Positions 3,674 to 42,594 of a stretch of DNA of 64,000 bases are shown one piece after another (position 1 is the stretch's first letter; each line of letters opens with the position of its first letter). Made by a program: the position numbers and the translations under genes. The notes below the pieces were generated by a model. That model was given only the letters and a program-made list of their open reading frames with translations, was not told the DNA's origin and searched no databases. The stretch comes from a virus: the IMG/VR virus record IMGVR_UViG_3300032322_001517, positions 41,665 to 105,664 of that record. One strand, 5' to 3'.

Positions 3674-4084
3674 TCACCGACGACTCTTAGTTCCAACAGT
3701 AGCCATATCAGTTTCGGGAGTAGCATACTGCAAACCACCCTTATTGAACAATGGCATCACACGACTCGCCTTATCGAGGATTTCCTTGCGGACATGCTCG
3801 GGCTCTTTATGAAGGTTGGTCATTACACCGCGTTTCACAGTAGAAGACGCATCACCTGACAACCCAGCTGAAACGTAGTCGCTTCGATCAACTTTCATAC
3901 TATCAGTATACTTCTGTTTCCAATTTTTGTCAAGCGTTTTTTTCTTGGCGATTTGACCAGGAAGAAGACCTTTCTCAAGAAGCCACTGCTCGTGCTTTGT
4001 CGTAGCAGCAGACTTTGCCTTGAGTTTAGAACTACGCTTGGTGTTATTGGTAGTGAAGTAAGCAGGTAGAATAGGCATAGTCAA
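3674..4084 (-). CDS. Hypothetical basic protein
   Basis: ORF with its own promoter; C-terminal PLFNKGGLQY motif that I recall from T4-like phage hypotheticals. Confidence 0.7.
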   Translation of the reverse strand: MTMPILPAYFTTNNTKRSSKLKAKSAATTKHEQWLLEKGLLPGQIAKKKTLDKNWKQKYTDSMKVDRSDYVSAGLSGDASSTVKRGVMTNLHKEPEHVRKEILDKASRVMPLFNKGGLQYATPETDMATVGTKSRR

Positions 4085-4108
4085 CCTTTCGATTTATCCT
4101 ATATCCTT

Positions 4109-4137
4109 ATATTACCTCTTGCCGGAATTAAAGTCAA
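4109..4137 (-). promoter_or_regulatory. Early promoter TTGACT-N17-TAATAT
   Basis: Shared TTAATTCCGG spacer motif. Confidence 0.75.
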
Positions 4138-4318
4138 CCTCTATTTGATCAAGCTTGACTATGAGCTCTTTGACGATTGGGTCGTATTGTGTTTCTTTGA
4201 TATGGAAAAACTGTCGATAATTGTTGTATTGTTTTTCAGCCATCATCGTAAATCTAATATCCATCATTTGCTCTATTAGATTTACTATGGATTCAGAATG
4301 TTTCTCTTGCTTCAACAT
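4112..4318 (-). CDS. Hypothetical protein
   Basis: ORF packed within the minus-strand operon. Confidence 0.6.
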   Translation of the reverse strand: MLKQEKHSESIVNLIEQMMDIRFTMMAEKQYNNYRQFFHIKETQYDPIVKELIVKLDQIEVDFNSGKR

Positions 4319-4649
4319 CTTGATTATCCCCGTCGTCTACGATGATATACTTTGCTTCATTATCTAATTGTGCATATGCTTCAAGTAACCTTCTAGCATC
4401 GTTCAATCTATCTACTACTTTACTGATAGTTTTTCGAGCAACAGGGTCGTTATGACCTTCTTCTAAATCCATTAAGACTGCATCTAAGTTAGAATCTACA
4501 GAATAGTCTATATGGAATTTTACCTTAGTTCCGTCGTTGCCCATTTCTTCTTTTAATTCTAACGGCGGAAACAATATCTTTTTAATCTGCTCTAGCTTTT
4601 CGTCTGCTGGAGTTTCTACTTTCTTTTCAATTTTCCACGGAAATCTCAT
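4293..4649 (-). CDS. Hypothetical protein
   Basis: ORF; ATG overlaps the upstream stop (TAATG). Confidence 0.7.
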   Translation of the reverse strand: MRFPWKIEKKVETPADEKLEQIKKILFPPLELKEEMGNDGTKVKFHIDYSVDSNLDAVLMDLEEGHNDPVARKTISKVVDRLNDARRLLEAYAQLDNEAKYIIVDDGDNQDVEARETF

Positions 4650-4840
4650 TACGAACAATACTCCCTAGCACTTTTCCAACATTCACATTTTTCACATTGT
4701 AACAAAGGACTTTCCGAATCGCATCTCTGTTGTTCGGAAAGATGCCTATATGTTTTATACTTTTTAAGTTCGCGCTTGTTTTGTTTTAAAGTTTTTCTGA
4801 GTTCGTTTATTTCTCTTTGAACGTCAGCGCAAGTTTTCAC
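4649..4840 (-). CDS. Hypothetical protein with C-terminal Cys cluster (CEKCECWK)
   Basis: Overlaps the regA stop. Confidence 0.6.
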   Translation of the reverse strand: MKTCADVQREINELRKTLKQNKRELKKYKTYRHLSEQQRCDSESPLLQCEKCECWKSAREYCS

Positions 4841-5238
4841 TTCTTTTTACGTCCCATATTGTACTTAGCTTCAAGCGTCCAATCATTCTTTTCTTTATGG
4901 TTGATAATCTTAATCTGACTCATAGAAGCTAGAGGTTCCTTAATCCGATCAGATTCAACGATCTTTAACAGACCCCAATCTTGAAGAAGTTCAGCTATCT
5001 TATTTCTGCGACCCTTGTCTTCTTCAGAAAAATTAGATGGCTTACCATCGATAGCAAACATTTCTTTAAAGTGCACGATATAATACTTGCCTTGCTTGTG
5101 AAAAATATGACAAGATTGGTAGAGCTTTTTTTCTTTGCGAGAAGCAACGCCTATGCGAGTTAGAGTTTCTTTAATTTTTAGAAAGTCTTCTTCTTCAGCG
5201 ATCCTCACCTCAATTAAGTTATCTAGCATTTCATTCAT
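4837..5238 (-). CDS. regA: Translational repressor RegA
   Basis: DFLKIKETLTRIGVAS...LYQSCHIFHKQGKYYIVHFKE signature; follows gp62. Confidence 0.97.
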   Translation of the reverse strand: MNEMLDNLIEVRIAEEEDFLKIKETLTRIGVASRKEKKLYQSCHIFHKQGKYYIVHFKEMFAIDGKPSNFSEEDKGRRNKIAELLQDWGLLKIVESDRIKEPLASMSQIKIINHKEKNDWTLEAKYNMGRKKK

Positions 5239-5239
5239 T

Positions 5240-5710
5240 TCATCCGCCTTTTATTTTCTTTTTTATATATTCCAATTGATCCTTAGTGAGGATCTTTCTA
5301 GCTGCCTTTGCTTTGGCAATATTGTATTTATAATATTCTCGTATTAGGCGGAGTTCTTGCTGTTCTTTCTCGATTTCTCTTTCTTTTTCAATATCTTCTT
5401 TGGTTTTCTTTTTACCAAACCTCTTAACCTTTCTAATCGAATGGAAAAGATAGTGATAGTGCATTTTGTCAGTAAGATGATAGTTAATATTCATCTCATT
5501 GGCAGCAAATATTGTATCAGAAAAATTAGAAAGGGAACTATTGGTTCTCCATTGGTCGTACTTAAACTCTTGTACACCATCTAAACTCAACAGTTCTTTT
5601 CCATAATTGATTGAGTTCTCAAATCTCCAATCGTACTTTGGTTTTACAACAACTTCTTGTTCTTTTTTTGCCTCTCTAGGCTGAAGAGTAACATCTAGAA
5701 ACTGTTTCAT
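5240..5710 (-). CDS. 62: Clamp loader small subunit gp62
   Basis: ANEMN...LFHSIRK..RF, IREYYKYN..KA; position between 44 and regA. Confidence 0.9.
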   Translation of the reverse strand: MKQFLDVTLQPREAKKEQEVVVKPKYDWRFENSINYGKELLSLDGVQEFKYDQWRTNSSLSNFSDTIFAANEMNINYHLTDKMHYHYLFHSIRKVKRFGKKKTKEDIEKEREIEKEQQELRLIREYYKYNIAKAKAARKILTKDQLEYIKKKIKGG

Positions 5711-6645
5711 ACCAACTCTGCTTCAAGCATAATTTCAGACAAAAATGCAGCGAAGTTGATTTCCGGATTGGCCGAAAACGCATTTTGATATTGATACTTT
5801 GCAATCAACATAATCAAAATGGGTAAAGTTCTCTTAGAAAAATACTCAGAAGCATTGTCATAAAATTCATTGTACAACTGATTGACATCTGTATCAATGT
5901 TATTCTTAACCCACTTTCTGATCTCAGTGAGATTCTTATCCTTCATCAAGGCGATAAGTTCCTTGATAGAAGTTTGCTGCATGTTAGCGAGAATACCAGA
6001 GTCGATTTTGCCTGTAGCTGAATACCGCTGAAGTTCATTAAGAACACGACGCCAATCTGGAAAGTGCTTGTTGATTACTTCAGCAACAACAGCAGGATCA
6101 AACTCAATGGTTTCCTTCTTGAGGATGCACTGGACACGCTTAAAGAACTGACCAGCGAGCTTGGCCATATCCTTCTTGCTGATCTTAAAGTCTACAACTG
6201 AGCAACGCGAATGAAGTGGATCGATGATGCGATTCTTAAAGTTACAGGTGAGGATGAATCCACAATTCTTGCTAAATTCCTCCATAAAATTTCGCAAAGC
6301 TGGCTGTGTTGAGTTTGCGTTAAGGTAATCTGCTTCGTCAAGGATAACGTACTTACGACCTCCAGAAAGAGATACACTGGACGCGAAGTTGAGAATTTCA
6401 TTTCGCAGGGTATCGATATTACCATTCATAGATCCGTTAATTACAATATAGTCACATCCAAGTTGTTCAAGCATAGCTCTTGCTACTGTTGTTTTACCAA
6501 CACCAGCGGATCCAGATAGGATAAGATTAGGGATATTTTTTTGATCAACGAATCGTTGAAAAGTTGCTTTTAAATCAACAGGTAGGATAGTCTCTTCAAT
6601 AGTTTTCGGACGATACTTTTCAACCCACAAAAAATCATCAAGCAT
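5707..6645 (-). CDS. 44: Clamp loader ATPase subunit gp44
   Basis: LWVEKYRP, GSAGVGKTT, DEAD, SRC motifs; start placed at MLDDF behind a GGAG RBS. Confidence 0.97.
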   Translation of the reverse strand: MLDDFLWVEKYRPKTIEETILPVDLKATFQRFVDQKNIPNLILSGSAGVGKTTVARAMLEQLGCDYIVINGSMNGNIDTLRNEILNFASSVSLSGGRKYVILDEADYLNANSTQPALRNFMEEFSKNCGFILTCNFKNRIIDPLHSRCSVVDFKISKKDMAKLAGQFFKRVQCILKKETIEFDPAVVAEVINKHFPDWRRVLNELQRYSATGKIDSGILANMQQTSIKELIALMKDKNLTEIRKWVKNNIDTDVNQLYNEFYDNASEYFSKRTLPILIMLIAKYQYQNAFSANPEINFAAFLSEIMLEAELV

Positions 6646-6660
6646 AGTATTCTCCATCAT

Positions 6661-6690
6661 AAAAAAAGGGGAGCCTTATTTTAGCTCCCC
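6661..6690 (-). terminator. Rho-independent terminator between gp45 and gp44
   Basis: GGGGAGC-loop-GCTCCCC followed by T7. Confidence 0.85.
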
Positions 6691-6707
6691 TGACACTTTA
6701 AGTCAAC

Positions 6708-7361
6708 TTAGAAAGTTGACGATTGTTCAACAGCAATCCAATACTCAGCTTCCTTGCCAGAGAAGTGCGAAATACCTCGCGAACAAATACTAACTTCATA
6801 ATCTCCAGGAATGATCTTAATATTTTCCAGCTTGAAGATAGCCTTAAATGTCTTTGTCGTTTCACCAACTTCAATAGAAAAAGTATTTCCATTAGTCAGC
6901 TTTGTATCATCAGCCTGAAGATACAACTTAGAACCATCGCCAACTATTACCATTTCAGGAAGGCTGTTAATACCAGCAGCCTTTTCAATCTTCTTAAAAT
7001 GATCCTGAGAAAGCGTAAAAGAAACATCAATGGATGGCAAATTGATTTCCTTTTCAGGCGGAGCCTTAATTGCGCTTTCATCAGCGAAAGGAATTACCTG
7101 CTTGAGATTACCCTCACGGATAACAAGCTGAGCATCGCCTAGCTTAACCTCAGGATCATTGAACATGCTCAAATTAGCAATGAATGAATCAAGGTTGTAG
7201 ATAGCAAACCTCTTATCGAAAGAGGTTTGAACTTGAGCCTTGGCCATTACAGTCTTTGAAGTTGAAATGGTCTTCAAAGTGTTTCCTTCCTGAATAATAA
7301 TGGAAGGATTAATCTTAGCAAAATTCTTAAGGATATTCACAGTATTGGTATCAATCTTCAT
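6708..7361 (-). CDS. 45: Sliding clamp gp45
   Basis: ILKNFAKINPSI, FAIYNL, KIIPGDYEV, YWIAVE. Confidence 0.96.
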   Translation of the reverse strand: MKIDTNTVNILKNFAKINPSIIIQEGNTLKTISTSKTVMAKAQVQTSFDKRFAIYNLDSFIANLSMFNDPEVKLGDAQLVIREGNLKQVIPFADESAIKAPPEKEINLPSIDVSFTLSQDHFKKIEKAAGINSLPEMVIVGDGSKLYLQADDTKLTNGNTFSIEVGETTKTFKAIFKLENIKIIPGDYEVSICSRGISHFSGKEAEYWIAVEQSSTF

Positions 7362-7389
7362 ATCAAACTCCTTTAGTGGATACTTTCAT

Positions 7390-7418
7390 AGTATAACTTA
7401 CATACTATAATTTGGCAA
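7390..7418 (-). promoter_or_regulatory. Promoter TTGCCA-N17-TATACT upstream of gp45
   Basis: Sigma70-like boxes in the intergenic gap. Confidence 0.55.
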
Positions 7419-8273
7419 TTACTTTTTGCCCTTCTTAAGAGCAGTGGGATCAGCTGTTGCTGCAGCCCCAATAGTCGCAAGATCAGCGAGCGAACCACCG
7501 AAGATGTAAGTACCAACATGCTGCATCTTCATCCATGGGCAGAACCATGTCTTCAAACCAATTTCCTGCGCCTTCTGACAGAACCAATAATCCTCAGAAA
7601 GATAACGCTTAGAAGCAGGATCGACTTCAGCCTGGAAGTACATCATAATTTCGCGAGAACCATCGAAATGTTCAGTACGAACATGGTCTGGCTTATAGTT
7701 ATACTGAGGATAGCTATCATTGAACTTCTTCATAGCTTCCTTGCTTACCATCATGAAACCTGTACCAATCTCAAGTACTTCGCATGGCTCGCTGATCTGA
7801 ATGCTCTGTTGACCACCCTTGGGATTAAAGACATAATCGCCAACAAACTTTTCAAGAACGTTAGGATCTTCGTCAGCAACGCCCTTATCTACAGCTTGCT
7901 TGATCTTTTCCCAACTGATACACTTCTTAGGATATGGACCACCAATGATGTCATACTTTTCAGTTTCTATTGTCTGCAAAGCCATCAATGCAATAACATC
8001 TTGAGGATTAAACCCAATGTCTGAGTCAATAAACATAAGATGCTGTGCGTCTGAACGCATAAACTCATCACAACAATAGTTTCTTGCACGAGTAATCAAA
8101 GATTCGTTGAACAAGAAATACATCTGAAGTGGGATGCCATAATTGGCACAAAGAGCTGAAAGGTCTGCTACAGAACGAGCAAACATACCAGCGCATTGCC
8201 CGCCATACATAGGCGTAGCAATAAATAACTTTCTTTCGCGAAGCTGTTCAATCGGGATTTGAATTTCCATCAT
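7419..8273 (-). CDS. Putative GT-A fold glycosyltransferase
   Basis: LFIATPMYGG, ESLITRARN, FIDSD (DxD), GTGFM, LSEDYWFC. Confidence 0.75.
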   Translation of the reverse strand: MMEIQIPIEQLRERKLFIATPMYGGQCAGMFARSVADLSALCANYGIPLQMYFLFNESLITRARNYCCDEFMRSDAQHLMFIDSDIGFNPQDVIALMALQTIETEKYDIIGGPYPKKCISWEKIKQAVDKGVADEDPNVLEKFVGDYVFNPKGGQQSIQISEPCEVLEIGTGFMMVSKEAMKKFNDSYPQYNYKPDHVRTEHFDGSREIMMYFQAEVDPASKRYLSEDYWFCQKAQEIGLKTWFCPWMKMQHVGTYIFGGSLADLATIGAAATADPTALKKGKK

Positions 8274-8593
8274 TTACCATCCTTATAATGATCTACGTAT
8301 AAACACATCAATACATAATGTATTGTTTTCATAAGATCGTCTTTATTAGAGCCGTTCTTTTTTCCGTAACGCCAAAGATATTTTAATGCAGTATTTCTAA
8401 AGGTAGGAGTAGAATCACCAAGAGCAATCCAAGCATCAAAACATTCAATTGACTGTTGTTCAGTCTTATAATGCTGACTATAAGTCTTATCGATATAAGA
8501 TTTGAAGTCGGCTATAATACGATCTTCAGCATATTTATATTCTATTTCTTCCTTCTTGTATGTGTTTTGGTGTACTAAGGAAAAATCTTTCAT
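8270..8593 (-). CDS. DUF3310-like protein
   Basis: HY...IECFD...KYLWRYGKK...DDLMKTIHY pattern. Confidence 0.7.
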   Translation of the reverse strand: MKDFSLVHQNTYKKEEIEYKYAEDRIIADFKSYIDKTYSQHYKTEQQSIECFDAWIALGDSTPTFRNTALKYLWRYGKKNGSNKDDLMKTIHYVLMCLYVDHYKDGK

Positions 8594-8603
8594 TATGAAC
8601 CTC

Positions 8604-9392
8604 TTAAAAAAATGAATCCAATGTCGCTCCAATTTGTTTACTATTATCCTTTAATCTAAGCTCAGCCATACCAGTTGTTTCGCGTATGTACATGGTGCAG
8701 TAATCTGGAAACATCTCAGCAATTTTACTGATAGATTCATGAACATATTCTTTGGTTCTAATTGTTTGAAGACCACCATCTTCCTTGTAGTAATTTGACT
8801 TTACAGTATAGTCATCAAATCGAACAACAGCACCGTTACGAATATACTGACGAATAGAATATTCATAATCTTCACCATGATTAGTTACGCGAGCAAGGTC
8901 ATCATGATGTTCGACAATAACACCAAACATCGAAGCAATGATATAGCAGAGCTTAGTATAAACTCTTTCCTTCATAAAGTATGCATTGGCAGCAGCGTAA
9001 ATACCAAATGTTTTAGCGCCTACCTTTTCGCACTCTTCAAAGCCACGAAGAATAATTTCCTTCTCAAGGTCATCAACACGACCCAACTTCTGTTCGCTGA
9101 TTTTCTTTTGAACCTCTTCAACGTCATCATCAAACATCATAAGGTAAGTACCTTCTGGGTAATACCTTTCAATGAAGTTACGTTGAGCGCCAATAGTAGG
9201 AACACCAACTACAATGTTTTGGTAGGGAGTATCCTTAAGAGAAAACTTGTATGCTTCATATTCGTTTTCATCAGCAACAAATATGGTGATCTTTGAAGGT
9301 TCTATATTGTAGCTTTCTAGAACCTTCAAAGTTTTCTTTTTAATTGTTTCAGGTCGCTTATATGAAGGAATCGCGATCTCATAATTAATCAT
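8604..9392 (-). CDS. TET-associated glycosyltransferase (TAGT-like, GT-A fold)
   Basis: IAIPSYKR, QRNFI, MMFDDD, GEDYE, GGLQ motifs; stop/start overlap with the TET/JBP gene. Confidence 0.8.
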   Translation of the reverse strand: MINYEIAIPSYKRPETIKKKTLKVLESYNIEPSKITIFVADENEYEAYKFSLKDTPYQNIVVGVPTIGAQRNFIERYYPEGTYLMMFDDDVEEVQKKISEQKLGRVDDLEKEIILRGFEECEKVGAKTFGIYAAANAYFMKERVYTKLCYIIASMFGVIVEHHDDLARVTNHGEDYEYSIRQYIRNGAVVRFDDYTVKSNYYKEDGGLQTIRTKEYVHESISKIAEMFPDYCTMYIRETTGMAELRLKDNSKQIGATLDSFF

Positions 9393-10699
9393 GCAAAAAA
9401 GCTCTCCAAATTAACTGTTTTATTTTTACCGTATGGATCCTTCATATCATGCTTATGAAGGTAATCATACCATTCCTGATCTTCCCACATTCCTGGAGAA
9501 ACACCATTCCACAGATTACGCTGAAGAGGATGATCCTTATTCAAGCGGCGCTCATCAACATACTGCTTGCGGAGATTTTCATATTCCCAAGACTGGAGTT
9601 CAAGCATCTTTTCGCGGAAGTATGCAACAATAGTCATACGGTCGTTATCATCACCTAGAAGAGCATCATTACCATGAATACCACCATGGTTATTTACAAG
9701 CAACATGTCTCCAGGTTGGATATTGATTGCGATACGATACTCAGGAAGAATAAACTCACCACCTCGCCAACCCTTACCGTCGGGTCCAGTTACACCACAG
9801 ATGTTAGAGAAACCTTCGTGAAGGTCGCCAGCATCTCGGTGACAGGCAGTACGCCAGTTGTGATTAACTGTAAGGGTAGTAAAAACAGTATCCGAAATAC
9901 GGAAACGATGATCAAGTTGTTGAGCAGCGTTGTTTTGCTTAGCCCAACGATTAGGAAGAAGTTCCTTGAACTGCTGATCCAACTTGCGCAGATAAGGATA
10001 CGAAAGCGCAAACTTCTCAAGGTTCTTTTCAGTATAAGAAGTTGCACGTCCATAAGGAATGCGAGGATAACGATCAAAGTAACCAGCGATGCCAGACATA
10101 ACGGACTGAGCGTAATTAGTTTCAGAAATGTAATTCTTAGCTACATACTCAGCTTCTTTACGCTGTTCTTCGCGTGTCATATTACCTAGACCATCAACCC
10201 ACTTGTCGAACCAACCGTGGTATTCAGGATACTTCTTGGTAACTTCTGAACGAAGCCATACTTGACCGCGAGTTTCTTCTTTCTTTGAAGATGCCTGGTG
10301 ACGAGCACGAATTGAGTCAATGCTATCATCTTCAACAATAGCATTCTCAGGTCTTAGAAGAAAATCGAGTATGTCAATATGATATTCCGTAACCCAATCT
10401 CTACCGCCGCGACCATTAGCGCCAAGCATATCGCCACGTGGTCCTGCAGCCAACCCGCGATTTTGTGACTCAACAGCAGCTTCTCGTAAACCAGCATACG
10501 CAGCATCTTGCTCTTCCTTTGTAAAAACATTTTTTCTATACTTAAAAATTATGTTTTCTTCAGAGATAGATCCATCAAGCGACTCAGCATACAAGTCACA
10601 ATCTTCGTTGATTACACGATCAGCGTAATCCTTAACTGTGATGAAAGCACCAAGAGTTTCTTCTGAATCAATTTTTTTTCTAACTATAATTTCTACCAT
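9389..10699 (-). CDS. TET/JBP-family 2-oxoglutarate/Fe(II) dioxygenase
   Basis: FTTLTVNHN.RTACHRD.GD (HxD), GGEFILPEY, GDMLL, IHGN (distal His), RMTIVAYFRE (2OG-binding Arg). Confidence 0.88.
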   Translation of the reverse strand: MVEIIVRKKIDSEETLGAFITVKDYADRVINEDCDLYAESLDGSISEENIIFKYRKNVFTKEEQDAAYAGLREAAVESQNRGLAAGPRGDMLGANGRGGRDWVTEYHIDILDFLLRPENAIVEDDSIDSIRARHQASSKKEETRGQVWLRSEVTKKYPEYHGWFDKWVDGLGNMTREEQRKEAEYVAKNYISETNYAQSVMSGIAGYFDRYPRIPYGRATSYTEKNLEKFALSYPYLRKLDQQFKELLPNRWAKQNNAAQQLDHRFRISDTVFTTLTVNHNWRTACHRDAGDLHEGFSNICGVTGPDGKGWRGGEFILPEYRIAINIQPGDMLLVNNHGGIHGNDALLGDDNDRMTIVAYFREKMLELQSWEYENLRKQYVDERRLNKDHPLQRNLWNGVSPGMWEDQEWYDYLHKHDMKDPYGKNKTVNLESFFA

Positions 10700-10745
10700 A
10701 TTACGCTCCTGTTGTTAGTGAATTACCATAGTATATATGCAACAA

Positions 10746-11156
10746 TTATAGCGTAATTATGTCATTAATCAAATTTTCTCTTTCATTTTGCAAAATTTTT
10801 GCAACATTCGGTGGTTGCCACCCAGCTGGCTTGAGGATTTTGCCATCTTCACGACGGAGAGGTTTACCATCCACCAACTTTGCCATGTTAGAATTATGAA
10901 CTTCTTCGAAAACCTTATCAAGGGGAATACCATAAGACACAGCTGTACCACAAGCAATGTAAATAATATCTGCTAGCGCATCAGCGATCTCAACGAGATC
11001 GTTGTTATGCTCTGCATCCTTGTATTCTGTAAATTCTTCAGTTAGAAGCTTGACTCTCAATGCTCTCTCAGCCTCGCCAGGAAGCTCAGGAAGCCTTCCT
11101 ACACGCTGACCGAAAGAACGATGAAAGTCCATTACATCTCTATACCAATTACTCAT
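10746..11156 (-). CDS. MazG-like / PRA-PH-like all-alpha NTP pyrophosphohydrolase
   Basis: V.DFH..FG, LLTEEF.E, ADALAD..Y, EVHNSNMAK, REDGKILKP. Confidence 0.88.
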   Translation of the reverse strand: MSNWYRDVMDFHRSFGQRVGRLPELPGEAERALRVKLLTEEFTEYKDAEHNNDLVEIADALADIIYIACGTAVSYGIPLDKVFEEVHNSNMAKLVDGKPLRREDGKILKPAGWQPPNVAKILQNERENLINDIITL

Positions 11157-11688
11157 TAATCCACTCCGGAGGTTGACGGTTAGTCCACTTATGCATGGAA
11201 ACTTTACCTAGTCTATAATAATTACGATAGTTTGTCAATGGGTCATTAGAAACTTTGTACTCGTCTGCCATAGCGGAAGGCATTGGTGTTGCCTCGTATC
11301 GCTTGAGATTATTTGGCGGAGATTGAAGCATATAAGAAAGCTCGCCGTAACACTTATGTTCTTTGTTGTAACGATAAGTGTATTCTGCCATCAGTGCATA
11401 AAAGTGATCAGTAAGCCAATTGTAATTCTCAACTGACTCACGGCACCAAACAGCTGAAGGATGATTGATGTGCGTTGCTTGATACACAACAGGGTCGCGT
11501 GCATCATCAAGAATCCAACGGCGAGCTTTACGCCCAGTCTTAGACTTACCTTCTACTTCACGACCATCGAGCAAGCGATGAGCAGTAGAAAGAAGTTGTG
11601 CTGACTCGAGGATCATTTTGACAACATGCTTGTCAACCATCCACTGAGCAGCTTGCGCTGGGTCTTTATCGATGTAGAAGATATTCAT
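11149..11688 (-). CDS. Pyrimidine-dimer DNA glycosylase family (DenV-like) protein
   Basis: MNIFY.D..P..AA....DKHVVKMILESAQLLST, THINHPS..W. Confidence 0.8.
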   Translation of the reverse strand: MNIFYIDKDPAQAAQWMVDKHVVKMILESAQLLSTAHRLLDGREVEGKSKTGRKARRWILDDARDPVVYQATHINHPSAVWCRESVENYNWLTDHFYALMAEYTYRYNKEHKCYGELSYMLQSPPNNLKRYEATPMPSAMADEYKVSNDPLTNYRNYYRLGKVSMHKWTNRQPPEWINE

Positions 11689-12205
11689 ATGAGCCCAAAT
11701 TAGATTTGATGTTGATCGAAGATTTAATACCTCGACGCCATTTGTCTAGTGCTTTATCACGATGAACGCGATTAGCTTTGTTGAAAAATATAACGCCGTC
11801 TAGATGATCTAGCTCATGCTGGAAAATACGAGCTGACATACCAGTAAACTGCTTAGTCAAGGTATCTCCATTAGGAGTTTGGAATCTTACTCTTACATGT
11901 TGAGAACGTTTAATTTTAACGTATAAACCTGGATAAGTCAAGCACCCTTCTTCAAGGACTACCTCAGCCTCTGAGGGCTGAACAATTTTCGGATTGAAAC
12001 AAACAAAGTTCTCAGGAGCAGCACGCATAGCAAAAATACGATATGGCACTCCCACTTGATTGGCAGCAAGACCGATACCGTTGTTATCATACATACACTT
12101 AACCAACTCCTTAGAAAAGTCAATGGGATCAAAAGGAGGATGTGAAAAATCAAAATGCTTGCAAGGATTAGTAAGTATAGGATCGTCATTCTTCACTAAA
12201 TTCAT
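11666..12205 (-). CDS. def: Peptide deformylase
   Basis: GIGLAANQVG, EGCLT, QHELDHLDG motifs. Confidence 0.95.
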   Translation of the reverse strand: MNLVKNDDPILTNPCKHFDFSHPPFDPIDFSKELVKCMYDNNGIGLAANQVGVPYRIFAMRAAPENFVCFNPKIVQPSEAEVVLEEGCLTYPGLYVKIKRSQHVRVRFQTPNGDTLTKQFTGMSARIFQHELDHLDGVIFFNKANRVHRDKALDKWRRGIKSSINIKSNLGSYEYLLHR

Positions 12206-12371
12206 TTTTCTTATCCGTTAATGTGTAGGTTCCATTTTTGTTATCAATCCAAAAAAGATCTGTTCCTTCTGCCCACCCCATTTGAGAAAGCAGATCAACA
12301 GGAATAGGAAGAATCAATTCTCCAGTTTCAATATCTTCTTGAACTTCTACCGTATATGTATTTGCTACCAA
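12186..12371 (-). CDS. AbrB/MazE-like small protein
   Basis: GELILPIP..LL...GW.EG..L swapped-hairpin pattern. Confidence 0.65.
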   Translation of the reverse strand: MVANTYTVEVQEDIETGELILPIPVDLLSQMGWAEGTDLFWIDNKNGTYTLTDKKNEFSEE

Positions 12372-12514
12372 TGTCTTATAACTCCAGCTATGATAAACAA
12401 GTTAGTTATAATATAACAAAATACTATTAGAGTTCTAATCAAAGCAATTTTATCTGCTTCTTTATCGTTTACACCTGCTTTTTCACCAAGAGCTTTAGAC
12501 CAAAGACGCCACAT
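12365..12514 (-). CDS. 49-aa membrane protein (not in the ORF track)
   Basis: MWRLWSKALGEKAGVNDKEADKIALIRTLIVFCYIITNLFIIAGVIRHW; ATG overlaps the gp46 stop; fills the gap exactly. Confidence 0.8.
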   Translation of the reverse strand: MWRLWSKALGEKAGVNDKEADKIALIRTLIVFCYIITNLFIIAGVIRHW

Positions 12515-14220
12515 TACAATATCCTAGAAAAGTTTTTATGTTTTCCAAACTTGATGACCTTCTCGAACTTGTCATAAAGCTGATCTGTTTTATGAGATAT
12601 AATAAACGTATTTGTATCAGAAGTCAACTCATTTATTATCTTGAGGAATTCCTCTGTGCCATTAGAATCCAGAGATGAATCAAAGACCTCGTCCATAATA
12701 AGAATGTTAGTATTGATAGAGTTACGTAGCTTGGCGAGAGAACGCCAAGTGAAAAGAATGGCAAGATTAATACGCATCTTTTCGCCTTCTGAGAAAGAAG
12801 CATACGAAAATTCATCTCTATACCTCGACTTAATTGTTTCGTTGAACTCTTCATCAAGTTCGAACTGACACATAAACTCCATAGAAGAAAGATACTTGTT
12901 GATTAGCTTGTTGATGATAGGAATATACTGCTTGATGATACGAGCTTTAATACCACCATCTTTCAGCAATGAAGAAGTAACATTCAATAAGTTTTTATCT
13001 TCAGAAAGTTCATTGAACTCTGCTTCTATTTGCCTCAACTCTTTTTCTAATTCAGGTATCTTGTTATCTTCTTTAACAGAGTCTGACTTACCAAGAGTTT
13101 TTAACTCTTCCTCTAGTCTATCTCTATATTCTATAACGGAAGATATTCTAGTTCTTACACTGTTTATCTCCATACGAATATCATTTATTTTGGATTGAGT
13201 TTCCAAAATTTGTTTTAGTTCACTGTTCTTTTCTTCGTATTGCTTAGTAAGCAGTTCTAAACCAGAGTTGTATTCTTCAATTTGTTTATTTTTTGTGTCA
13301 ATAGTTTCGCACTTGAACTCTTCATTTATTTCTTGCTTACAGGTTGGACAGTTGTCATGTTTTTCAAAAAACGTAACTTCTTTTTTAACCAATACCAAGT
13401 TAGCTTCTATTTGATGCCTTAACTTAGAAAGTTTTTGTAGCATTTTAGAAACACATTCAGAATCAGGAATGTTTTCTATTAAATCTTTTCTTTCGTTTTC
13501 TAACTTCCAATAATCCTTATTAAGTTGATCAATTTTTTTATTCGTGTCTTGAATCAACTCTTTCTTTTCATTAATCAGCTGATCTGTATTGTTCTGAAGT
13601 TGCTTAAGATGATCTTTGATAAAATCAATTTTTTCTTGAGTTACTTTTTTCTTCGTTTGAATTTCAAAAAGTTTTTCAGTATTATTAAGCAATTTATTTT
13701 TAAGAATAGAGTTCATCGTAGTAAAGATTTGAAGGTCAAGAAGATCTTCAATAATTTCTCTACGCTGACCAGCAGACAACTGCATAAAAGGTTGGAACGT
13801 AGCAGATCCAAGAACTACTACCTGACAAAAAGACTTATGGTTAATCTTAAGAATTTGCTTCTCAAGAATTTCTTGATAGTCTTTCATCTCCGCTGACTGA
13901 TTCATCAGCTTATCATCTTTGTAAACTTCAAAAACGTTGGGCTTCATACCACGAACAATTTTAAAGTTGTTCTTGGCGATAGAAAACTCAACTTCAACTA
14001 CAAGTTGTTTCTGAGTTATAGTATTAATAAGCTGTGGCTTGTTGATTTTACGAAACGCCTTGCCAAACAAAACAAATGACAATGCGTCAAGAATGGTAGA
14101 TTTACCTGCACCATTCTCACCAACAATCAAAGTTGTATTGTACTTGTTAAGTTCGATTTCAGTAAAAACATTACCAGTGGATAGTAAGTTTTTCCATCGC
14201 AGTTTCTTAAATAAAATCAT
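12514..14220 (-). CDS. 46: Recombination endonuclease ATPase subunit gp46 (Rad50/SbcC-like)
   Basis: GENGAGKST, CPTC zinc hook, FSEGEKMRI, MDEVFD, ISH. Confidence 0.97.
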   Translation of the reverse strand: MILFKKLRWKNLLSTGNVFTEIELNKYNTTLIVGENGAGKSTILDALSFVLFGKAFRKINKPQLINTITQKQLVVEVEFSIAKNNFKIVRGMKPNVFEVYKDDKLMNQSAEMKDYQEILEKQILKINHKSFCQVVVLGSATFQPFMQLSAGQRREIIEDLLDLQIFTTMNSILKNKLLNNTEKLFEIQTKKKVTQEKIDFIKDHLKQLQNNTDQLINEKKELIQDTNKKIDQLNKDYWKLENERKDLIENIPDSECVSKMLQKLSKLRHQIEANLVLVKKEVTFFEKHDNCPTCKQEINEEFKCETIDTKNKQIEEYNSGLELLTKQYEEKNSELKQILETQSKINDIRMEINSVRTRISSVIEYRDRLEEELKTLGKSDSVKEDNKIPELEKELRQIEAEFNELSEDKNLLNVTSSLLKDGGIKARIIKQYIPIINKLINKYLSSMEFMCQFELDEEFNETIKSRYRDEFSYASFSEGEKMRINLAILFTWRSLAKLRNSINTNILIMDEVFDSSLDSNGTEEFLKIINELTSDTNTFIISHKTDQLYDKFEKVIKFGKHKNFSRIL

Positions 14221-15281
14221 TCAACAGCCAATGCCTCATTATACAGATCTACAATTTTTCTAGAAAGTTTATCTTTGTTGACGTTTTTCAAATCGTAATT
14301 GTCAATATACTTTTTGAAAATATCAAGAGTCGATTCAGCTTCATTAATAATATCCATATCGTCTTCTAGATCTAGATTAAGATGATCTTCAACGATCTGA
14401 ATATCGATAGGGGTTTCGCTTTCAATATTTTCGATAAACTTATCGAACCAGTATGGATTAGTTTTATTTGTTACAATAACCTTCAGCAATGTATTTTTAA
14501 AACTAGAGTAATCTACATCAGCATTTAGGAAATTTTCGTCAACGTCATTATACCATACCTTCTTAAACATCTTATATGGATTTTCAATGAAAGTCAACTC
14601 ACGCGTTTCTGTATCCAAGATATGAAACCCTCTAGGATCATCATAATCAGACCAGGTAAACTCGCCATGAGAACCAAGATAGAAAATAGTACCATCAGTG
14701 GAACGGTGATGATAATGACCGCTAAGAACCATGTCAAAGCGCCCAAATAAAGAACGGTCACTGCCATGAGATACGATACTTCCGCGATACATTTCGAAAC
14801 CTTGTATCTCAAGGTGTCCTGCGCACACTGACGTATTAGCATTCTCAATCGCTGAAAGGATTTGTTTGTTGTTGTCATCACATATCCATGGAATAAAAAG
14901 AATAGGAAGGTTATCGAACGTTACTGTTTCAGCATAACGATCGTAGATATGAAACGGATACTTACCATAAACAAGTTCACGAAGTGCATTAATCTCATTC
15001 GTGTTTTTAAAGTAAGTATCATGATTACCAGCAATCAGATGAACCTCAAGGTTTCTACCTAAAAGTGGATCAAGGAAATCATTTTTTAAACGGTTCCCAG
15101 TATTGTAGTTAATATATTTACGCCTATCAACGAGATCCCCAAGGTGAACAACATTACGAATTCCATGTTTTTCCAAATAAGGAAAAAAAGTATTATCAAG
15201 GAACAACTTGCTGTTGTCAAGAAACGCCAAGTTATCATTACGAACTCCCCAATGAGTATCTGTTATCAGTGCAATTTTCAA
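14217..15281 (-). CDS. 47: Recombination endonuclease subunit gp47 (Mre11/SbcD-like)
   Basis: DTHWG, LGDLVDRR, GNHD, SGHYH. Confidence 0.97.
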   Translation of the reverse strand: MKIALITDTHWGVRNDNLAFLDNSKLFLDNTFFPYLEKHGIRNVVHLGDLVDRRKYINYNTGNRLKNDFLDPLLGRNLEVHLIAGNHDTYFKNTNEINALRELVYGKYPFHIYDRYAETVTFDNLPILFIPWICDDNNKQILSAIENANTSVCAGHLEIQGFEMYRGSIVSHGSDRSLFGRFDMVLSGHYHHRSTDGTIFYLGSHGEFTWSDYDDPRGFHILDTETRELTFIENPYKMFKKVWYNDVDENFLNADVDYSSFKNTLLKVIVTNKTNPYWFDKFIENIESETPIDIQIVEDHLNLDLEDDMDIINEAESTLDIFKKYIDNYDLKNVNKDKLSRKIVDLYNEALAVE

Positions 15282-15472
15282 CGCATAACTCTCGTGTTAG
15301 GTCTAGTAACTGGCTTGCTGGTGTTATGTTTGTTGATTACAACAGAACAATAATCTCTAATAGCTTCTAGTCTCAAAATATAGTTCATTTTTTCATTCTC
15401 ACGAACTGTTGGCGAGTTAGATTTTTCACCTATATCTAAAACTATAGGTGGAATCAAATGTTCATTTTTCAT
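15278..15472 (-). CDS. Hypothetical protein
   Basis: Overlap-coupled ORF between 55 and 47. Confidence 0.7.
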   Translation of the reverse strand: MKNEHLIPPIVLDIGEKSNSPTVRENEKMNYILRLEAIRDYCSVVINKHNTSKPVTRPNTRVMR

Positions 15473-15995
15473 TATTATCTCCTAAAAATTTTTCTATTCC
15501 AGATATTTTATCCTCTTTTTTTGGTTTAGTCAACTTATTTTCATAAGATCGAACTACCTCAGCAGAGTACTCATTAACTCCTATCTGAATATCATTATCG
15601 CCATTGAACAACTCGTTCATCAAATACAAGTTCTCAAAGTTTTTGTGTTTAATATAAGTCTGCTTCTTTTCCTTGTGGATCCTTCGGATGAAGGCATTCC
15701 ATGCGATCTGAGTAAAATAAGCAAAAGGGTTGTTGGTTTTATCTGGATTAAAGTTATCTACTGCAGCTATACAATCAATCATAGCATCAGAGATCATGTC
15801 TTCTTTGTATGTGTATCCAGAAAAGTTAGGCTTCTTGGCTAGATTGTTACAAATTAAAACAATAGATTCACCTATGTACCTAGGAACTTGTGGCTTCTTT
15901 TTATTTTTTTGTTCAGCTTCCCTAAGAGAGTTCTTATAATGAATCATAGCACCATAAAGAGTTTTGTTATTAATGTAATTATTAGTTCTTGCCAT
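15462..15995 (-). CDS. 55: Late-transcription sigma factor gp55
   Basis: YINNK, NFSGYTYKEDMISD, NPFAYFTQIAWNAFIRRI.KEKKQ. Confidence 0.96.
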   Translation of the reverse strand: MARTNNYINNKTLYGAMIHYKNSLREAEQKNKKKPQVPRYIGESIVLICNNLAKKPNFSGYTYKEDMISDAMIDCIAAVDNFNPDKTNNPFAYFTQIAWNAFIRRIHKEKKQTYIKHKNFENLYLMNELFNGDNDIQIGVNEYSAEVVRSYENKLTKPKKEDKISGIEKFLGDNNEK

Positions 15996-40773: not shown

Positions 40774-42594
40774 TTACGAAAAATACGAACCTGTAACGCC
40801 TGTGCCAGTAGTTTGGAGTCTAGGAAATGATAAGTTAGAACCAGTAGAAGTGGTTTCGTTTGAATAACGATAAATTTCTACTGAAGCTAGAGGACTTGTC
40901 CAAAAATTGTTGGATTGACCATAAGAAACTATACCAGCTACATTAGAACTAACAGAACCGCCTGCCCATCTAAATGTAGAAAGCGTAGTACCAGAAGTAA
41001 CAGTATCTCCTGAATATGTATATTTATACGTACTTCTATTTTCTCCAGCTGATTGGATACCGCTTGTAATAAGTCCTACAGTAGAGTTTCCTAATGGAAC
41101 AGCCCATCCTTTAGGATTTGTTAAAGATGTTGCAGCTGCCATAACGTTAGAAGAGTATGTATACTTTTCAGTAGTAGCGATATAGTTAATTGTATTAGAA
41201 CCACCACCAGCATAAATTGCCACTGTCGACTTATCTGTTATAGCTGAATGTAACCATCTTCTTGTAATCAGAGCAGCTGCCGAAGTTCTAGTTTCAGCTG
41301 CATAATTATATTTGTCATGCCTTCCAGCAAAAGTTCCTGGCGAAGTAAGGTTTATCGCGCCACCAGAAACATAACCATCTGTTGTAGTTCCAGTAGCAGC
41401 TCCGTAATTAGCAGCATTAGCGATCGTAGCTCCTGCTGCTACAGCATCTCCCGAATAGGTATACTTAGCAGTAGTCGCAATAGGAGAAGCCGTTTGATTT
41501 GCGCCAGCGAAGAAAATAGCTCTGGTTTCATTTCCAGAACCAGCAGTGCCCATAGCGTGTCTTACAAGGGTAAGGTTAGTTCCAGTTGTAGTAGCGTCTG
41601 TCGCATAATAATATTTTGATGTAAGTGCTGTTGAAACTGTAGTATAACCACCAGCAATGACGCCAAATTTAGAAGAAGAGAGACCGTAGCCAGAAGACAT
41701 GGATATTTGGCCGCTAGGAACACTTAGTAAAGTTCTTACGCTTAAATCGTCCAAACTATTTGATAATGTACTAGGGAAACCAAGAGCCAAGTTTACGTTA
41801 GACATACCGATACTACCAGAAGCTGGTAAAGCAACAGGAGTCCATTCCCAAGAAACTATAATTGCTCCTTGTGCTCCTTCACTGTAATTACTTCCGTCAG
41901 GTTGCCCAGCACTAATTATCGCAGTTCCGCCACCACCGCCGCCAAAAAGACCACCAGAACCTCCAGGGTAAAATGTGTCTGGCCCATCATCACCAGCATC
42001 CCTGCTTTTGGCTCCAGTTCCACCAGACCCAGCATAGTTAGTACCATAAAAATTACCACGAGGAGCGTCTCCGCCCGTGGATGTTACGCTTGCAGCGCCA
42101 CCAGTTGCTCCTCCAGCGCCTGAAGTACGTCCACTGCCATTACCGCCCGCTGCAGTATCACCACCTGCTCCACCACCACCACCATAGTTTTGTCCAGATG
42201 AATGTGTTGCTGAAGCTCCGTTACCACCGTTCCATTTGGTTGTACCAGTGGAATTAGTAGCAGAACCACCTGTGCCACCAGTGCCAGAAGTCGCAGCTCC
42301 GCCGTTACCACCCTTGGCTAATACAGTACCACTATTGAACGAAGTATCACCGCCTACGCCATTAATAGCACCACCAGCTCCAATACTAACCGGAATTGAA
42401 GCTCCAATAGTTAACGAAATATTATTACTGATTGCACGTGCGCCACCGCCGCCGCCACCAGTTGCTGCTCCACCAGTGTTAGCGCCACCACCACCGCCAC
42501 CACCAATACAGGAAACGCTGTTATTTGAGTTGTTCCAAGATTTTGGTACGGTCCAAGTTGTGCCGGAAATAATAACAACTGTGCTTCTTGGCAT
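40774..42594 (-). CDS. Glycine-rich protein with Kelch-like repeats; putative tail adhesin
   Basis: N-terminal GGGGGG domain; about six ~47-aa GG...T.KY.Y......L repeats. Confidence 0.7.
   Translation of the reverse strand: MPRSTVVIISGTTWTVPKSWNNSNNSVSCIGGGGGGGANTGGAATGGGGGGARAISNNISLTIGASIPVSIGAGGAINGVGGDTSFNSGTVLAKGGNGGAATSGTGGTGGSATNSTGTTKWNGGNGASATHSSGQNYGGGGGAGGDTAAGGNGSGRTSGAGGATGGAASVTSTGGDAPRGNFYGTNYAGSGGTGAKSRDAGDDGPDTFYPGGSGGLFGGGGGGTAIISAGQPDGSNYSEGAQGAIIVSWEWTPVALPASGSIGMSNVNLALGFPSTLSNSLDDLSVRTLLSVPSGQISMSSGYGLSSSKFGVIAGGYTTVSTALTSKYYYATDATTTGTNLTLVRHAMGTAGSGNETRAIFFAGANQTASPIATTAKYTYSGDAVAAGATIANAANYGAATGTTTDGYVSGGAINLTSPGTFAGRHDKYNYAAETRTSAAALITRRWLHSAITDKSTVAIYAGGGSNTINYIATTEKYTYSSNVMAAATSLTNPKGWAVPLGNSTVGLITSGIQSAGENRSTYKYTYSGDTVTSGTTLSTFRWAGGSVSSNVAGIVSYGQSNNFWTSPLASVEIYRYSNETTSTGSNLSFPRLQTTGTGVTGSYFS

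Follow-up and report, generated by a model that had tools for sequence, protein, structure and literature searches.

An uncultured, T4-like phage encodes, within its replication gene block, what we read with moderate confidence as a post-replicative thymine hypermodification module. A TET/JBP enzyme would hydroxylate thymine in phage DNA to 5-hydroxymethyluracil (5hmU), and a TAGT-family enzyme, the single GT-A enzyme of an exchangeable slot, would then glycosylate that hydroxyl group with a nucleotide-sugar as donor, giving a base-J-like glycosyl-5hmU. Both enzymes would probably be brought to newly copied phage DNA through their [ST]L[DE]xFF tails by the gp45 sliding clamp, whose gene lies 1.2 kb away; motif homology suggests this, because the gp43 polymerases of relatives bear the same peptide at the RB69 clamp-binding position. 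The idea of a thymine substrate, raised in an earlier note on this DNA, is right but not new, because phage T-dioxygenases have already been shown experimentally (PMC13229309) and the chemistry is published for other phages. What sets this locus apart from the published chemistry is that both enzymes end in the peptide that relatives' DNA polymerases use for holding the sliding clamp.

The gp46-gp45 block and its exchangeable slot

Coordinates are positions in the window, a 64,000-nt stretch of IMGVR_UViG_3300032322_001517 (record positions 41,665 to 105,664); the whole contig is 105,664 bp long, 63% complete and contains 228 ORFs. Profile searches found every gene named in the earlier note on the minus strand and where it had been placed, and added a peptide deformylase gene that had been overlooked between the DenV-like gene and gp46.

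6708..7361, (-): gp45 sliding clamp (PF09116; phrog_223, E 9e-71)
7419..8273, (-): protein of predicted GT-A fold, 284 aa (phrog_1574, no Pfam match)
8270..8632, (-), probable ATG start 8593: DUF3310 protein (PF11753, 24.3 bits, cut-off 24 bits; phrog_480, E 2e-22)
8604..9392, (-): TAGT-family GT-A glycosyltransferase, 262 aa (PF20691, 62.8 bits, cut-off 27.5 bits; phrog_842, E 4e-17)
8607..8624, (-): TAGT C-terminal tail TLDSFF, putative gp45 clamp-binding motif
9389..10699, (-): TET/JBP (5mYOX) Fe(II)/2OG dioxygenase, 436 aa (PF12851, 62.4 bits, cut-off 34.9 bits)
9392..9412, (-): TET C-terminal tail NLESFFA, putative gp45 clamp-binding motif
10746..11156, (-): PRA-PH/MazG-like nucleotide pyrophosphohydrolase (PF01503, E 1e-19; phrog_671)
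11149..11688, (-): weak T4 endonuclease V (Pyr_excise, DenV-like) protein (PF03013, 24.5 bits, cut-off 23 bits; phrog_624, E 6e-56)
11666..12205, (-): peptide deformylase (PF01327, E 2e-40)
12514..15281, (-): recombination nuclease subunits gp46 and gp47, bordering the island on its upstream side (phrog_77, phrog_100); gp46 alone, 12514-14220
15462..15995, (-): gp55-like late sigma factor, called because it follows gp47, an order also seen in DLP6 and phiM12, not by family search

The HMM searches suggested in the earlier note thus matched both TET_JBP and TAGT. The identity and catalytic residues of the TET are established: H287, R288, D289, H342 and R354 (HRD..H..R) are invariant in 53 orthologues, and the best PDB matches of the predicted structure are CcTet, TET2 and NgTet1. 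IMG/VR held 151 TET orthologues. Pfam gave no match to a J-DNA-binding or SNF2 domain in the TET, and the database label of its orthologues, "SNF2 DNA repair protein," is a misnomer. We predict that the enzyme is a thymine dioxygenase with 5hmU in DNA as its product.

TAGT alone fills the variable slot in this phage; its reading frame has a 4-nt overlap with the TET stop codon, and 13 distinct orthologues occupy the same slot in sister loci. R..DDD..EDY motifs are visible in its sequence; phage GT-A glycosyltransferases that carry them resemble JGT and add sugar straight onto hydroxymethylpyrimidine in DNA (10.1101/2023.12.21.572611). We predict that the substrate of TAGT is 5hmU in DNA. In T2/T6, the PF20691 member adds glucose to a base that already bears one, sugar onto sugar and not first sugar onto base (PMC13216743), a precedent that counts against TAGT as the first-sugar enzyme here.

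We defined the slot as the interval between TET and DUF3310 and counted its contents in the 57 sister loci with both borders. The TETs of these sister contigs are 58-99% identical and are followed by a swappable slot, which holds TAGT in 20 of the 57 loci and AADT (PF18724) with Ploopntkinase3 (PF18751) in about 30, often together with GATase and GNAT. Neither the AADT nor the Ploopntkinase3 family matched anywhere in this contig. Enzymes of both families have been shown to work on 5-hmdU in DNA (PMC8989533). On the TET tree, loci of the two cassette types are intermingled, with at least nine changes of the TAGT label on well-supported branches, and TETs that are 87-93% identical were found with either cassette. 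DUF3310, a conserved gene that follows every cassette type, closes the slot on its downstream side. A weak ParB-like protein occurs in 11 sister cassettes and none in this window; some clade C1 TETs lacking ParB are inactive in E. coli (PMC13229309), which is a point against the proposed pathway.

The modification likely serves to protect phage DNA rather than to terminate transcription. It is somewhat unlikely that 5hmU is instead formed at limited sequence contexts and that the glycosyl mark is regulatory, serving replication, packaging or gp45-mediated late transcription and not bulk nuclease protection. Such a role would fit the characterised phage T-dioxygenases, which select their sites by sequence (YTY, NTR), with 1-35% of T modified (PMC13229309), as well as the position of these genes among replication and late-transcription genes, with a clamp motif common to gp55-type factors. 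However, the rapid cassette exchange among near-identical TETs resembles the arms-race diversification commonly seen in anti-restriction modifications.

A polymerase-type tail on the modification enzymes

TET, TAGT, AADT and other slot enzymes share a C-terminal [ST]L[DE]xFF, which is also the tail of relatives' gp43 polymerases; gp43 is not on this contig, and the polymerase match is seen in relatives only. Among the 228 ORFs of the contig, only TET and TAGT have an L[DE]xFF C-terminus. The tail is conserved in 62 of 68 distinct TET orthologues and in all 13 distinct TAGTs. Across 81 loci with 1,081 distinct products, 101 of the 103 tail-bearing proteins were TET or slot enzymes (Fisher p ~3e-117).

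The gp43 tails read ATLDSFFA in DLP6, ATLEDFFG in C48C1 and, as a variant, ADLSSLFD in Cr30. The TAGT tail TLDSFF matches the final residues of DLP6 gp43 exactly, and Cr30 shows an L-F variant ending also in its TET (ATLF) and TAGT-like protein (DLSKLF). The C-terminus of RB69 gp43 is the clamp-binding peptide (PMC2988020), and the DLP6 gp43 tail aligns with it end-to-end; because of this alignment, the base modification is probably clamp-tethered through the enzyme tails. A glycosyltransferase, T4 alpha-GT, is known to bind gp45 (PMC13216743).

The shared peptide might serve another role, for example mutual enzyme assembly, degradation tagging or capsid packaging, and two observations lean that way. 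The tail is missing from the P-loop kinase, another DNA-acting enzyme, and in this clade the G[IV]EKF motif of the gp55-like protein, shared by most of 24 distinct sister sequences, lies close to the C-terminus but internally, not at the very end. We consider such a role unlikely, since the same tail stands on gp43 of DLP6 and C48C1, with a variant in Cr30, at a site whose counterpart in RB69 is the clamp-binding peptide, and the enzyme tails vary together with the polymerase tail in Cr30. In addition, the tail is absent from TET and TAGT of S-CBWM1, HTVC112P, P12024L and Donny, phages outside the T4-like group.

Substrate and flanking genes

The earlier note had reported no methyltransferase in the window and called for a search of the rest of the genome for a C5-MTase or hydroxymethylase. 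The observation extends to the contig: PF00145, PF01555, PF02086 and PF00303 were not found in its 105,664 bp (63% complete), leaving the contig without a match to methyltransferases of the C5, N6/N4 or Dam type or to a hydroxymethylase. PF00145 was also not found in five sister contigs (64-99 kb) or in the complete genomes of DLP6, Cr30 and C48C1, cultured relatives with an orthologous TET. The view that phage TETs usually have a C5-MTase as neighbour is outdated, as only ~6% of mined 5mYOX pathways show this and phage T-dioxygenases have been demonstrated (PMC13229309). Thymine is the likeliest TET substrate because TETs 87-93% identical serve TAGT or a 5hmU cassette alike, and glycosyl-5hmU is the likely product here; both suggestions of the earlier note, thymine over 5mC and a base-J-like product, agree with the missing C5-MTase and with the AADT and 5-hmdU DNA kinase cassettes beside near-identical sister TETs. 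The cassette argument presumes that AADT and kinase act on 5hmU in this clade; Burke et al. (PMC8256090) thought a 5hmC role possible for such kinases.

We regard as very unlikely the known glycosyl-5hmC route, in which a C5-MTase from the missing 37% of the genome or from the host makes 5mC, TET converts it to 5hmC and TAGT glycosylates this. Characterised clade A/B phage TETs do act on 5mC, phage GT-A glycosyltransferases do glycosylate 5hmC (PMC8256090; 10.1101/2023.12.21.572611), and the contig is incomplete, so a C5-MTase could sit in the missing part. However, PF00145 is absent from all of the sequences above, orthologous TETs feed AADT and 5-hmdU kinase cassettes, and characterised C5-MT/TET pairs are adjacent (PMC8256090), whereas all neighbours here are accounted for.

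The genes for MazG, the DenV-like protein, DUF3310 and the 284-aa GT-A protein belong to the conserved flanks and are not specific to the pathway. The GT-A fold of the 284-aa protein is supported by modelling: its ESM Atlas structural neighbours are GT2-like clusters (TM 0.80-0.94), Foldseek matched GT-A enzymes at E ~1e-4 from a predicted structure with a pLDDT of only 66, and it has a D83-S-D85 motif. The protein is a conserved gp45 neighbour in the wider T4-like lineage and is not TET-dependent: it is equally present beside AADT/kinase cassettes, phiM12 has a homologue in a gp46-gp45 stretch without TET or cassette gene, and most phages holding it in the phage collection, phiM12-type phages included, gave no TET match. 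MazG adjoins regA, away from TET, in DLP6 and Cr30, and the sister-locus survey found no clamp tail on DUF3310, MazG or the 284-aa protein. The proposals that the second GT-A extends the sugar and that MazG sanitises the nucleotide pool are therefore not supported, both genes being conserved whatever the cassette. The DenV-like protein is present in nearly all sister loci and had no PDB sequence match. We give very little credence to the 284-aa protein as primary DNA glycosyltransferase with TAGT adding a second sugar; the T2/T6 enzyme, the fold and DxD motif, and a gene 330 bp downstream of TAGT would allow it, but its presence with other cassettes or without TET, and its want of the tail of the DNA-acting enzymes, oppose it.

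Comparison with known systems

Formation of 5hmU is published for phage T-dioxygenases that have no C5-MT beside them and in many cases have glycosyltransferase partners (O'Toole et al., PNAS 2026, PMC13229309; TET89, Burke et al. 2021, PMC8256090), and 5mYOX clades C1/C2 include ParB-independent and ParB-dependent forms (PMC13229309). The TET here shares their TET/JBP fold and the lack of a neighbouring C5-MT. Clade C2 is linked to glycosyltransferases and clade C1 to GATase, P-loop kinase and AADT, comparable to TAGT here and to the AADT/kinase sisters. Post-replicative conversion of T to 5hmU is demonstrated for members of these clades, whereas the TET here is likened to them by fold and gene neighbours. 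It differs in length (436 aa against ~290-300 aa for tested ParB-independent T-dioxygenases), in its place among T4-like replication genes between gp46 and gp45, with no ParB in the window, and in its polymerase-type clamp tail, of which PMC13229309 and PMC8256090 make no mention.

The kinetoplastid base J pathway (JBP1/JBP2 and JGT) has the same two predicted steps, T to 5hmU by a TET/JBP dioxygenase and then GT-A glycosylation, and JGT structurally resembles phage GT-A DNA glycosyltransferases (10.1101/2023.12.21.572611), though the TET here lacks the Pfam J-DNA-binding and SNF2 matches. The sister contigs are exactly of the type of the metavirome clusters with TET_JBP, 5-hmdU DNA kinase and AADT (aGPT-Pplase2) described by Lee et al. 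(NAR 2021/22, PMC8989533), with the same orthologous TET as predicted supplier of 5hmU; in this window, one TAGT replaces kinase and AADT. The T2/T6 beta-glucosyl-HMC-alpha-glucosyltransferase belongs to PF20691 like TAGT. However, T6 is a phage with a dCMP hydroxymethylase, and its enzyme adds to a glucose already present on hmC, whereas TAGT is the only glycosyltransferase in the slot of a TET phage with no hydroxymethylase found.

The clamp-binding motifs of T4/RB69 gp43, gp55 and gp33 (PMC2988020, PMC7892883, PMC13216743) are likewise short acidic-hydrophobic C-terminal peptides on proteins working on clamp-loaded DNA, and the T4 alpha-glucosyltransferase-gp45 interaction (PMC13216743) is a precedent for a gp45-binding DNA glycosyltransferase. 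T4 alpha-GT, in contrast to the GT-A enzyme TAGT, belongs to the GT-B class, and its substrate is hmC that was incorporated pre-replicatively. Compared with T4/RB69, the polymerase-type tail is found here on unrelated folds: a DSBH dioxygenase, a GT-A enzyme, AADT and several unknown families.

The gp47-gp45 block and its enzymes

The contig that holds the window is linear, 105,664 bp long and 63% complete by CheckV, and the window spans its bases 41,665-105,664. The whole gp47-gp45 block lies on the minus strand, with transcription running toward lower coordinates.

Genes of the gp47-gp45 block (window coordinates, strand, product)
14217-15281, minus, gp47
12514-14220, minus, gp46
11666-12205, minus, peptide deformylase (PDF)
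11149-11688, minus, weak Pyr_excise/DenV-like protein (24.5 bits, cut-off 23)
10746-11156, minus, PRA-PH/MazG
9389-10699, minus, Tet_JBP (TET; 62.4 bits, curated cut-off 34.9)
8604-9392, minus, TAGT (62.8 bits, cut-off 27.5)
8270-8632, minus, DUF3310
7419-8273, minus, 284-aa protein, phrog_1574
6708-7361, minus, gp45

A 4-nt overlap joins TET to TAGT and likewise DUF3310 to the 284-aa gene. These annotations confirmed the gene list that the earlier note had drawn up from sequence alone, the peptide deformylase being its sole omission; an NCBIfam search added nothing. Cultured phages gave zero megablast matches to the locus, leaving cultured relatives detectable at the protein level only, and phmmer against PDB sequences found no match for the TET, TAGT or DenV-like protein, so that the fold search alone was informative. 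Scanning 6500-12600 for sigma-70 promoters and terminators gave a site total not above chance. Directly 3' of gp45 (6691-6667, minus strand) is a strong hairpin that, with its T-run, resembles a terminator, and sigma-70-like hexamer pairs occupy the block's only two intergenic gaps, at 7390-7418 before gp45 and at 10745-10772 (minus strand) before the TET.

By profile, residues and double-stranded beta-helix fold, the TET belongs to the TET/JBP (5mYOX) dioxygenases. The PF12851 match spans residues 212-363, and the iron triad and 2OG-binding arginine (H287-R-D289, H342 and R354) are invariant across 53 orthologues. The AF2 model (pLDDT 78) had CcTet, TET2 and NgTet1 as its top Foldseek PDB matches, with E values from 4e-7 to 3e-5. 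Pfam found only the Tet_JBP domain in this protein, with no fused J-binding (JBP1) or SNF2 (JBP2) domain, and the N-terminal 210 residues matched no family. Orthologues are present in the complete genomes of the cultured Stenotrophomonas phage DLP6 (50% identity), C48C1 (45%) and Caulobacter phage Cr30 (41%), where they are mislabelled "SNF2 DNA repair protein" or unnamed.

The R...DDD...EDY motifs defined for phage GT-A DNA glycosyltransferases (10.1101/2023.12.21.572611) are present in the TAGT as QRNF, FDDD and GEDYEY. TAGT and TET genes are linked in 20 sister loci, taken from IMG/VR contigs that carry an orthologous TET, and in S-CBWM1, and they also lie close together in DLP6 and Cr30. 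The 284-aa protein carries a DSD motif and has a GT-A fold; its structural neighbours in the Atlas are GT2-like clusters (TM 0.80-0.94), and Foldseek matched its mediocre model to GtrB, ArnC, PBCV-1 A64R and the LH3 GT domain (E ~1e-4).

The earlier note had proposed that this second glycosyltransferase extends the sugar and that the MazG-like enzyme sanitises the nucleotide pool. The 284-aa protein accompanies every type of cassette found beside the TET, and it has more than 8,000 homologues in the protein collection; a near-identical copy (283 aa, 100% identity) is encoded on a contig of 149,928 bp. The phiM12 copy sits immediately between gp46 and gp45, in a stretch with neither TET nor cassette gene, and further copies are found in Ochrobactrum phage OC, Synechococcus ACG-2014f phages and two pelagiphages; searching the phage collection gave a TET match for none of these phages, phiM12 included. 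MazG, in turn, adjoins regA, apart from the TET, in DLP6 and Cr30. Both proposed pathway roles are therefore unsupported.

An exchangeable slot and the product of the oxidase

This TET is encoded on no fewer than 151 IMG/VR contigs, 80 of which we fetched for comparison. They share a fixed frame of gp47, gp46, PDF, DenV-like protein, MazG, TET, a variable slot of 0.76-5.4 kb, DUF3310, the 284-aa GT-A protein and gp45, with the DenV-like protein and DUF3310 as constant flanks outside the proposed pathway. Slot contents were tallied in the 57 loci with both slot borders.

Slot contents in 57 loci
TAGT alone, 15/57 loci, the window among them
Uncharacterised 254-aa protein and TAGT, 5/57 loci
Two uncharacterised proteins, F10 and F11, 7/57 loci
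AADT (PF18724) and Ploopntkinase3 (PF18751), about 30/57 loci

The AADT/kinase cassettes are either bare or joined by extra genes: the uncharacterised protein F9; a set of GATase, protein F4, GNAT and a 425-485-aa protein; a GT-B-like enzyme with an LMW phosphatase; or inositol-1-phosphate synthase. The 425-485-aa protein, found in 11 of these cassettes (e.g., L072:11553-13003 and L080:11514-12934), has a weak N-terminal GIY-YIG match and a weak ParB/Noc-like core (PDB 7ng0, E 0.003; ParB_N, 17 bits). It may be a counterpart of the ParB-like proteins that activate T-dioxygenases; TETs that are nearly identical are found both with and without it. Several slot families had no Pfam match, namely F9 (L066:8095-8669), F26 (L074:3466-4505), F10/F11 (L071:1446-2868), F12 (L042:2868-3631) and F4 (L056:2497-3413). 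F4, F9, F10/F11 and F12 also had no PHROG match, and F26 had one weak match to a PHROG of unknown function.

The cultured relatives vary the arrangement. DLP6 (L001, KU682439.2, locus 4045-8335) has the order TAGT (AAY80_028), a 563-aa sugar nucleotidyltransferase with an NTP_transferase domain (AAY80_029, named ModA in the DLP6 paper) and TET (AAY80_030, which bears the label "SNF2 DNA repair protein"); the existing annotations of this stretch look wrong. In Cr30 (L002:9196-13474) the TET is followed by four small genes and then by AADT, a TAGT-like protein and inositol-1-phosphate synthase; a protein with a dATP/dGTP-diphosphohydrolase N-domain is also encoded downstream of the TET. In C48C1 (L003:8323-10355) an uncharacterised 344-aa protein and UDP-galactopyranose mutase follow the TET, the mutase hinting at a furanose sugar.

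Cassettes have changed hands among closely related oxidases. A quick IQ-TREE search gave a TET tree on which TAGT labels are interspersed with AADT/kinase ones, with at least nine changes of the TAGT label on well-supported branches, and TETs with different cassettes are 87-93% identical in pairs (92.6% for L064/L056 and 89.6% for L016/L019). Since near-identical TETs stand beside either cassette and the labels are interleaved, one oxidase product appears to feed both. Biochemical work has shown that AADT and the P-loop kinase use 5-hmdU in DNA as their substrate, and in some metavirome clusters TET_JBP replaces the dUMP hydroxymethylase (PMC8989533).

A methyltransferase is the other item that bears on the substrate. 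METHYLTRANSFERASES None of PF00145, PF01555, PF02086 or PF00303 was found in the entire 105,664-bp contig. All neighbours of the TET were identified, and no C5-cytosine methyltransferase adjoins it. PF00145 was likewise not found in the complete genomes of DLP6, C48C1 and Cr30 or in five more sister contigs of 64-99 kb, so the earlier observation that the window encodes no methyltransferase holds, for PF00145, across the contig, these sister contigs and three complete relatives. Given the acceptor of AADT and the kinase, and with no C5-methyltransferase found, the TET product is most likely 5hmU. A substrate call from active-site residues (D292, three residues past the Asp of HxD) was rejected, as we know of no validated determinant of T versus 5mC.

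Neither AADT nor the P-loop kinase was found in the window's own contig, and the predicted fate of 5hmU here is thus glycosylation by the TAGT. We know of no chemical demonstration of glycosyl-5hmU in phage DNA. The central idea of the earlier note, a thymine substrate leading to glycosyl-5hmU, appears right, and it had already been published as a prediction. Phage T-dioxygenases were shown in 2021 with TET89 (PMC8256090) and systematised in 2026, the ParB-independent ones often lying beside glycosyltransferases, the ParB-dependent ones being linked to GATase, kinase and AADT, and a C5-methyltransferase occurring in only 6% of mined 5mYOX pathways (O'Toole 2026, PMC13229309). Most contigs with a glycosyltransferase and a 5mYOX enzyme lack a methyltransferase and probably make 5hmU (10.1101/2023.12.21.572611).

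Outside the window, on the plus strand (G000:C1:27667-32324; L087:7667-12324), the contig encodes AdoMet decarboxylase, a cytidylyltransferase-like protein, a SIS protein (GmhA-like), a HAD phosphatase (GmhB-like), transaldolase, a GT-B enzyme (Glycos_transf_1) and a GHMP kinase, in that order. This cluster looks like a nucleotide-activated heptose pathway with a transferase. As a sugar source 20 kb away it was set aside, its co-occurrence with TAGT giving no clear link: judged by homologues of the GHMP kinase, Cr30, one TAGT contig and another contig of undefined cassette type have it, and DLP6 and C48C1 do not.

A C-terminal tail shared by the TET and slot enzymes

The TET ends in NLESFFA and the TAGT in TLDSFF, and among the 228 contig ORFs of at least 60 aa these are the only two with an L[DE]xFF C-terminus. 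We extended the search to 1,081 distinct ORF products from 81 loci, using the pattern [LIV][DE]x[FL][FMLY] within the final 8 residues. It occurred in 103 products, 101 of which were TETs or slot enzymes (Fisher p ~3e-117): TET 62/68, TAGT 13/13, AADT 17/32 (a looser pattern adds others), F9 6/7, GT-B-like enzyme 2/2 and FkbM-like protein 1/1. The pattern was found in none of gp46, gp47, PDF, DenV-like protein, DUF3310, 284-aa GT-A protein, gp45 or gp44 and in 1/51 MazG proteins; the P-loop kinase, GATase, F4 and ParB-like protein are also without it. F9 ends in TLDNFF and F26 in L[NT]DFF, and these tails make both families candidate new DNA-modifying enzymes.

Similar termini are found on the gp43 polymerase, which ends in ATLDSFFA in DLP6, ATLEDFFG in C48C1 and ADLSSLFD in Cr30. 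The tail of DLP6 gp43 can be aligned from end to end with the RB69 gp43 C-terminus, the last 11 residues of which have been co-crystallised on the RB69 clamp; T4 gp43, gp55 and gp33 have clamp-binding tails of this sort that can replace one another (PMC2988020, PMC7892883). DLSSFFN is the ending of the DLP6 TAGT, and in Cr30 the polymerase, the TET (ATLF) and the TAGT-like protein (DLSKLF) all have L-F endings. Outside the T4-like group, the tail is absent from the TET/TAGT proteins of S-CBWM1, pelagiphage HTVC112P, Nonlabens phage P12024L and mycobacteriophage Donny. We infer docking on gp45 for the TET, the TAGT and the majority of slot enzymes. Neither the contig nor five sister contigs carry gp43, so the tail match was read in DLP6, Cr30 and C48C1 and docking is argued from motif homology only. 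When the gp45 trimer was modelled in complex with residues 380-436 of the TET, the score was 0.48 and that of one control 0.31, which weighs neither for nor against docking. T4 alpha-glucosyltransferase binds gp45 (PMC13216743), and gp45/clamp is named among neighbour annotations in the glycosyltransferase preprint (10.1101/2023.12.21.572611). In papers that mention both 5mYOX enzymes and a clamp, and in a further literature search on sliding clamps and DNA modification, we found no description of a polymerase-type clamp tail on these enzymes.

Two other C-termini were recorded. In the gp55 homologue of this clade, recognised from its location after gp47, a conserved G[IV]EKF motif precedes an acidic stretch that is variable, and a 187-aa ORF outside the window (G000:C1:26271-26834, plus strand) ends in the acidic-hydrophobic ADEIVDFY.

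The tail might further serve as a portable label, by which gp45 would deliver tailed slot enzymes (GT-A, AADT, the Pfam-less F9 and F26, and the GT-B-like enzyme) to newly replicated phage DNA as a plug-and-play hypermodification toolbelt, the T4-like counterpart of ParB. We regard this reading as plausible while stopping a little short of calling it probable; if true, it would account for some such TETs being inactive when expressed alone in E. coli.

Significance and relation to known systems

The locus is real, and its chemistry, a phage T-dioxygenase with a glycosyltransferase, is already published and adds no new kind of system. The added interest lies in the exchangeable slot and the probable clamp tether. 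If correct, a large and abundant environmental T4-like group makes base-J-like or amino-acid-decorated thymines post-replicatively, and the retention of the oxidase while the decorating cassette swaps would clearly exemplify arms-race modularity. Through the clamp tail, post-replicative enzymes would have a concrete mechanism for finding phage rather than host DNA and for keeping pace with replication, and the tail suggests co-expressing the cognate clamp and loader where such TETs seem dead in heterologous assays. The cultured relatives DLP6 and Cr30 put the prediction within direct reach of testing.

ParB-dependent T-dioxygenases have a cognate ParB-like activator, whereas PF02195 (ParB) was found in neither the window's contig nor DLP6, Cr30 or C48C1. 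These activators are CTP-dependent DNA clamps in small phages and, were the tail a portable label, ParB and gp45 would be two independent means of placing the same oxidase on a ring that slides along DNA. HTVC112P (L095: ParB-like protein, TET and FkbM methyltransferase) and Donny (L097: ParB-like protein, TET, TAGT, deacetylase and kinase) show ParB-associated arrangements without LDxFF tails. T-even hmC glucosylation features a thymidylate-synthase-family hydroxymethylase, whereas PF00303 is absent from the contig. The locus is not a member of the kinetoplastid base J system (JBP1/2 with JGT), but it is predicted to work like it.
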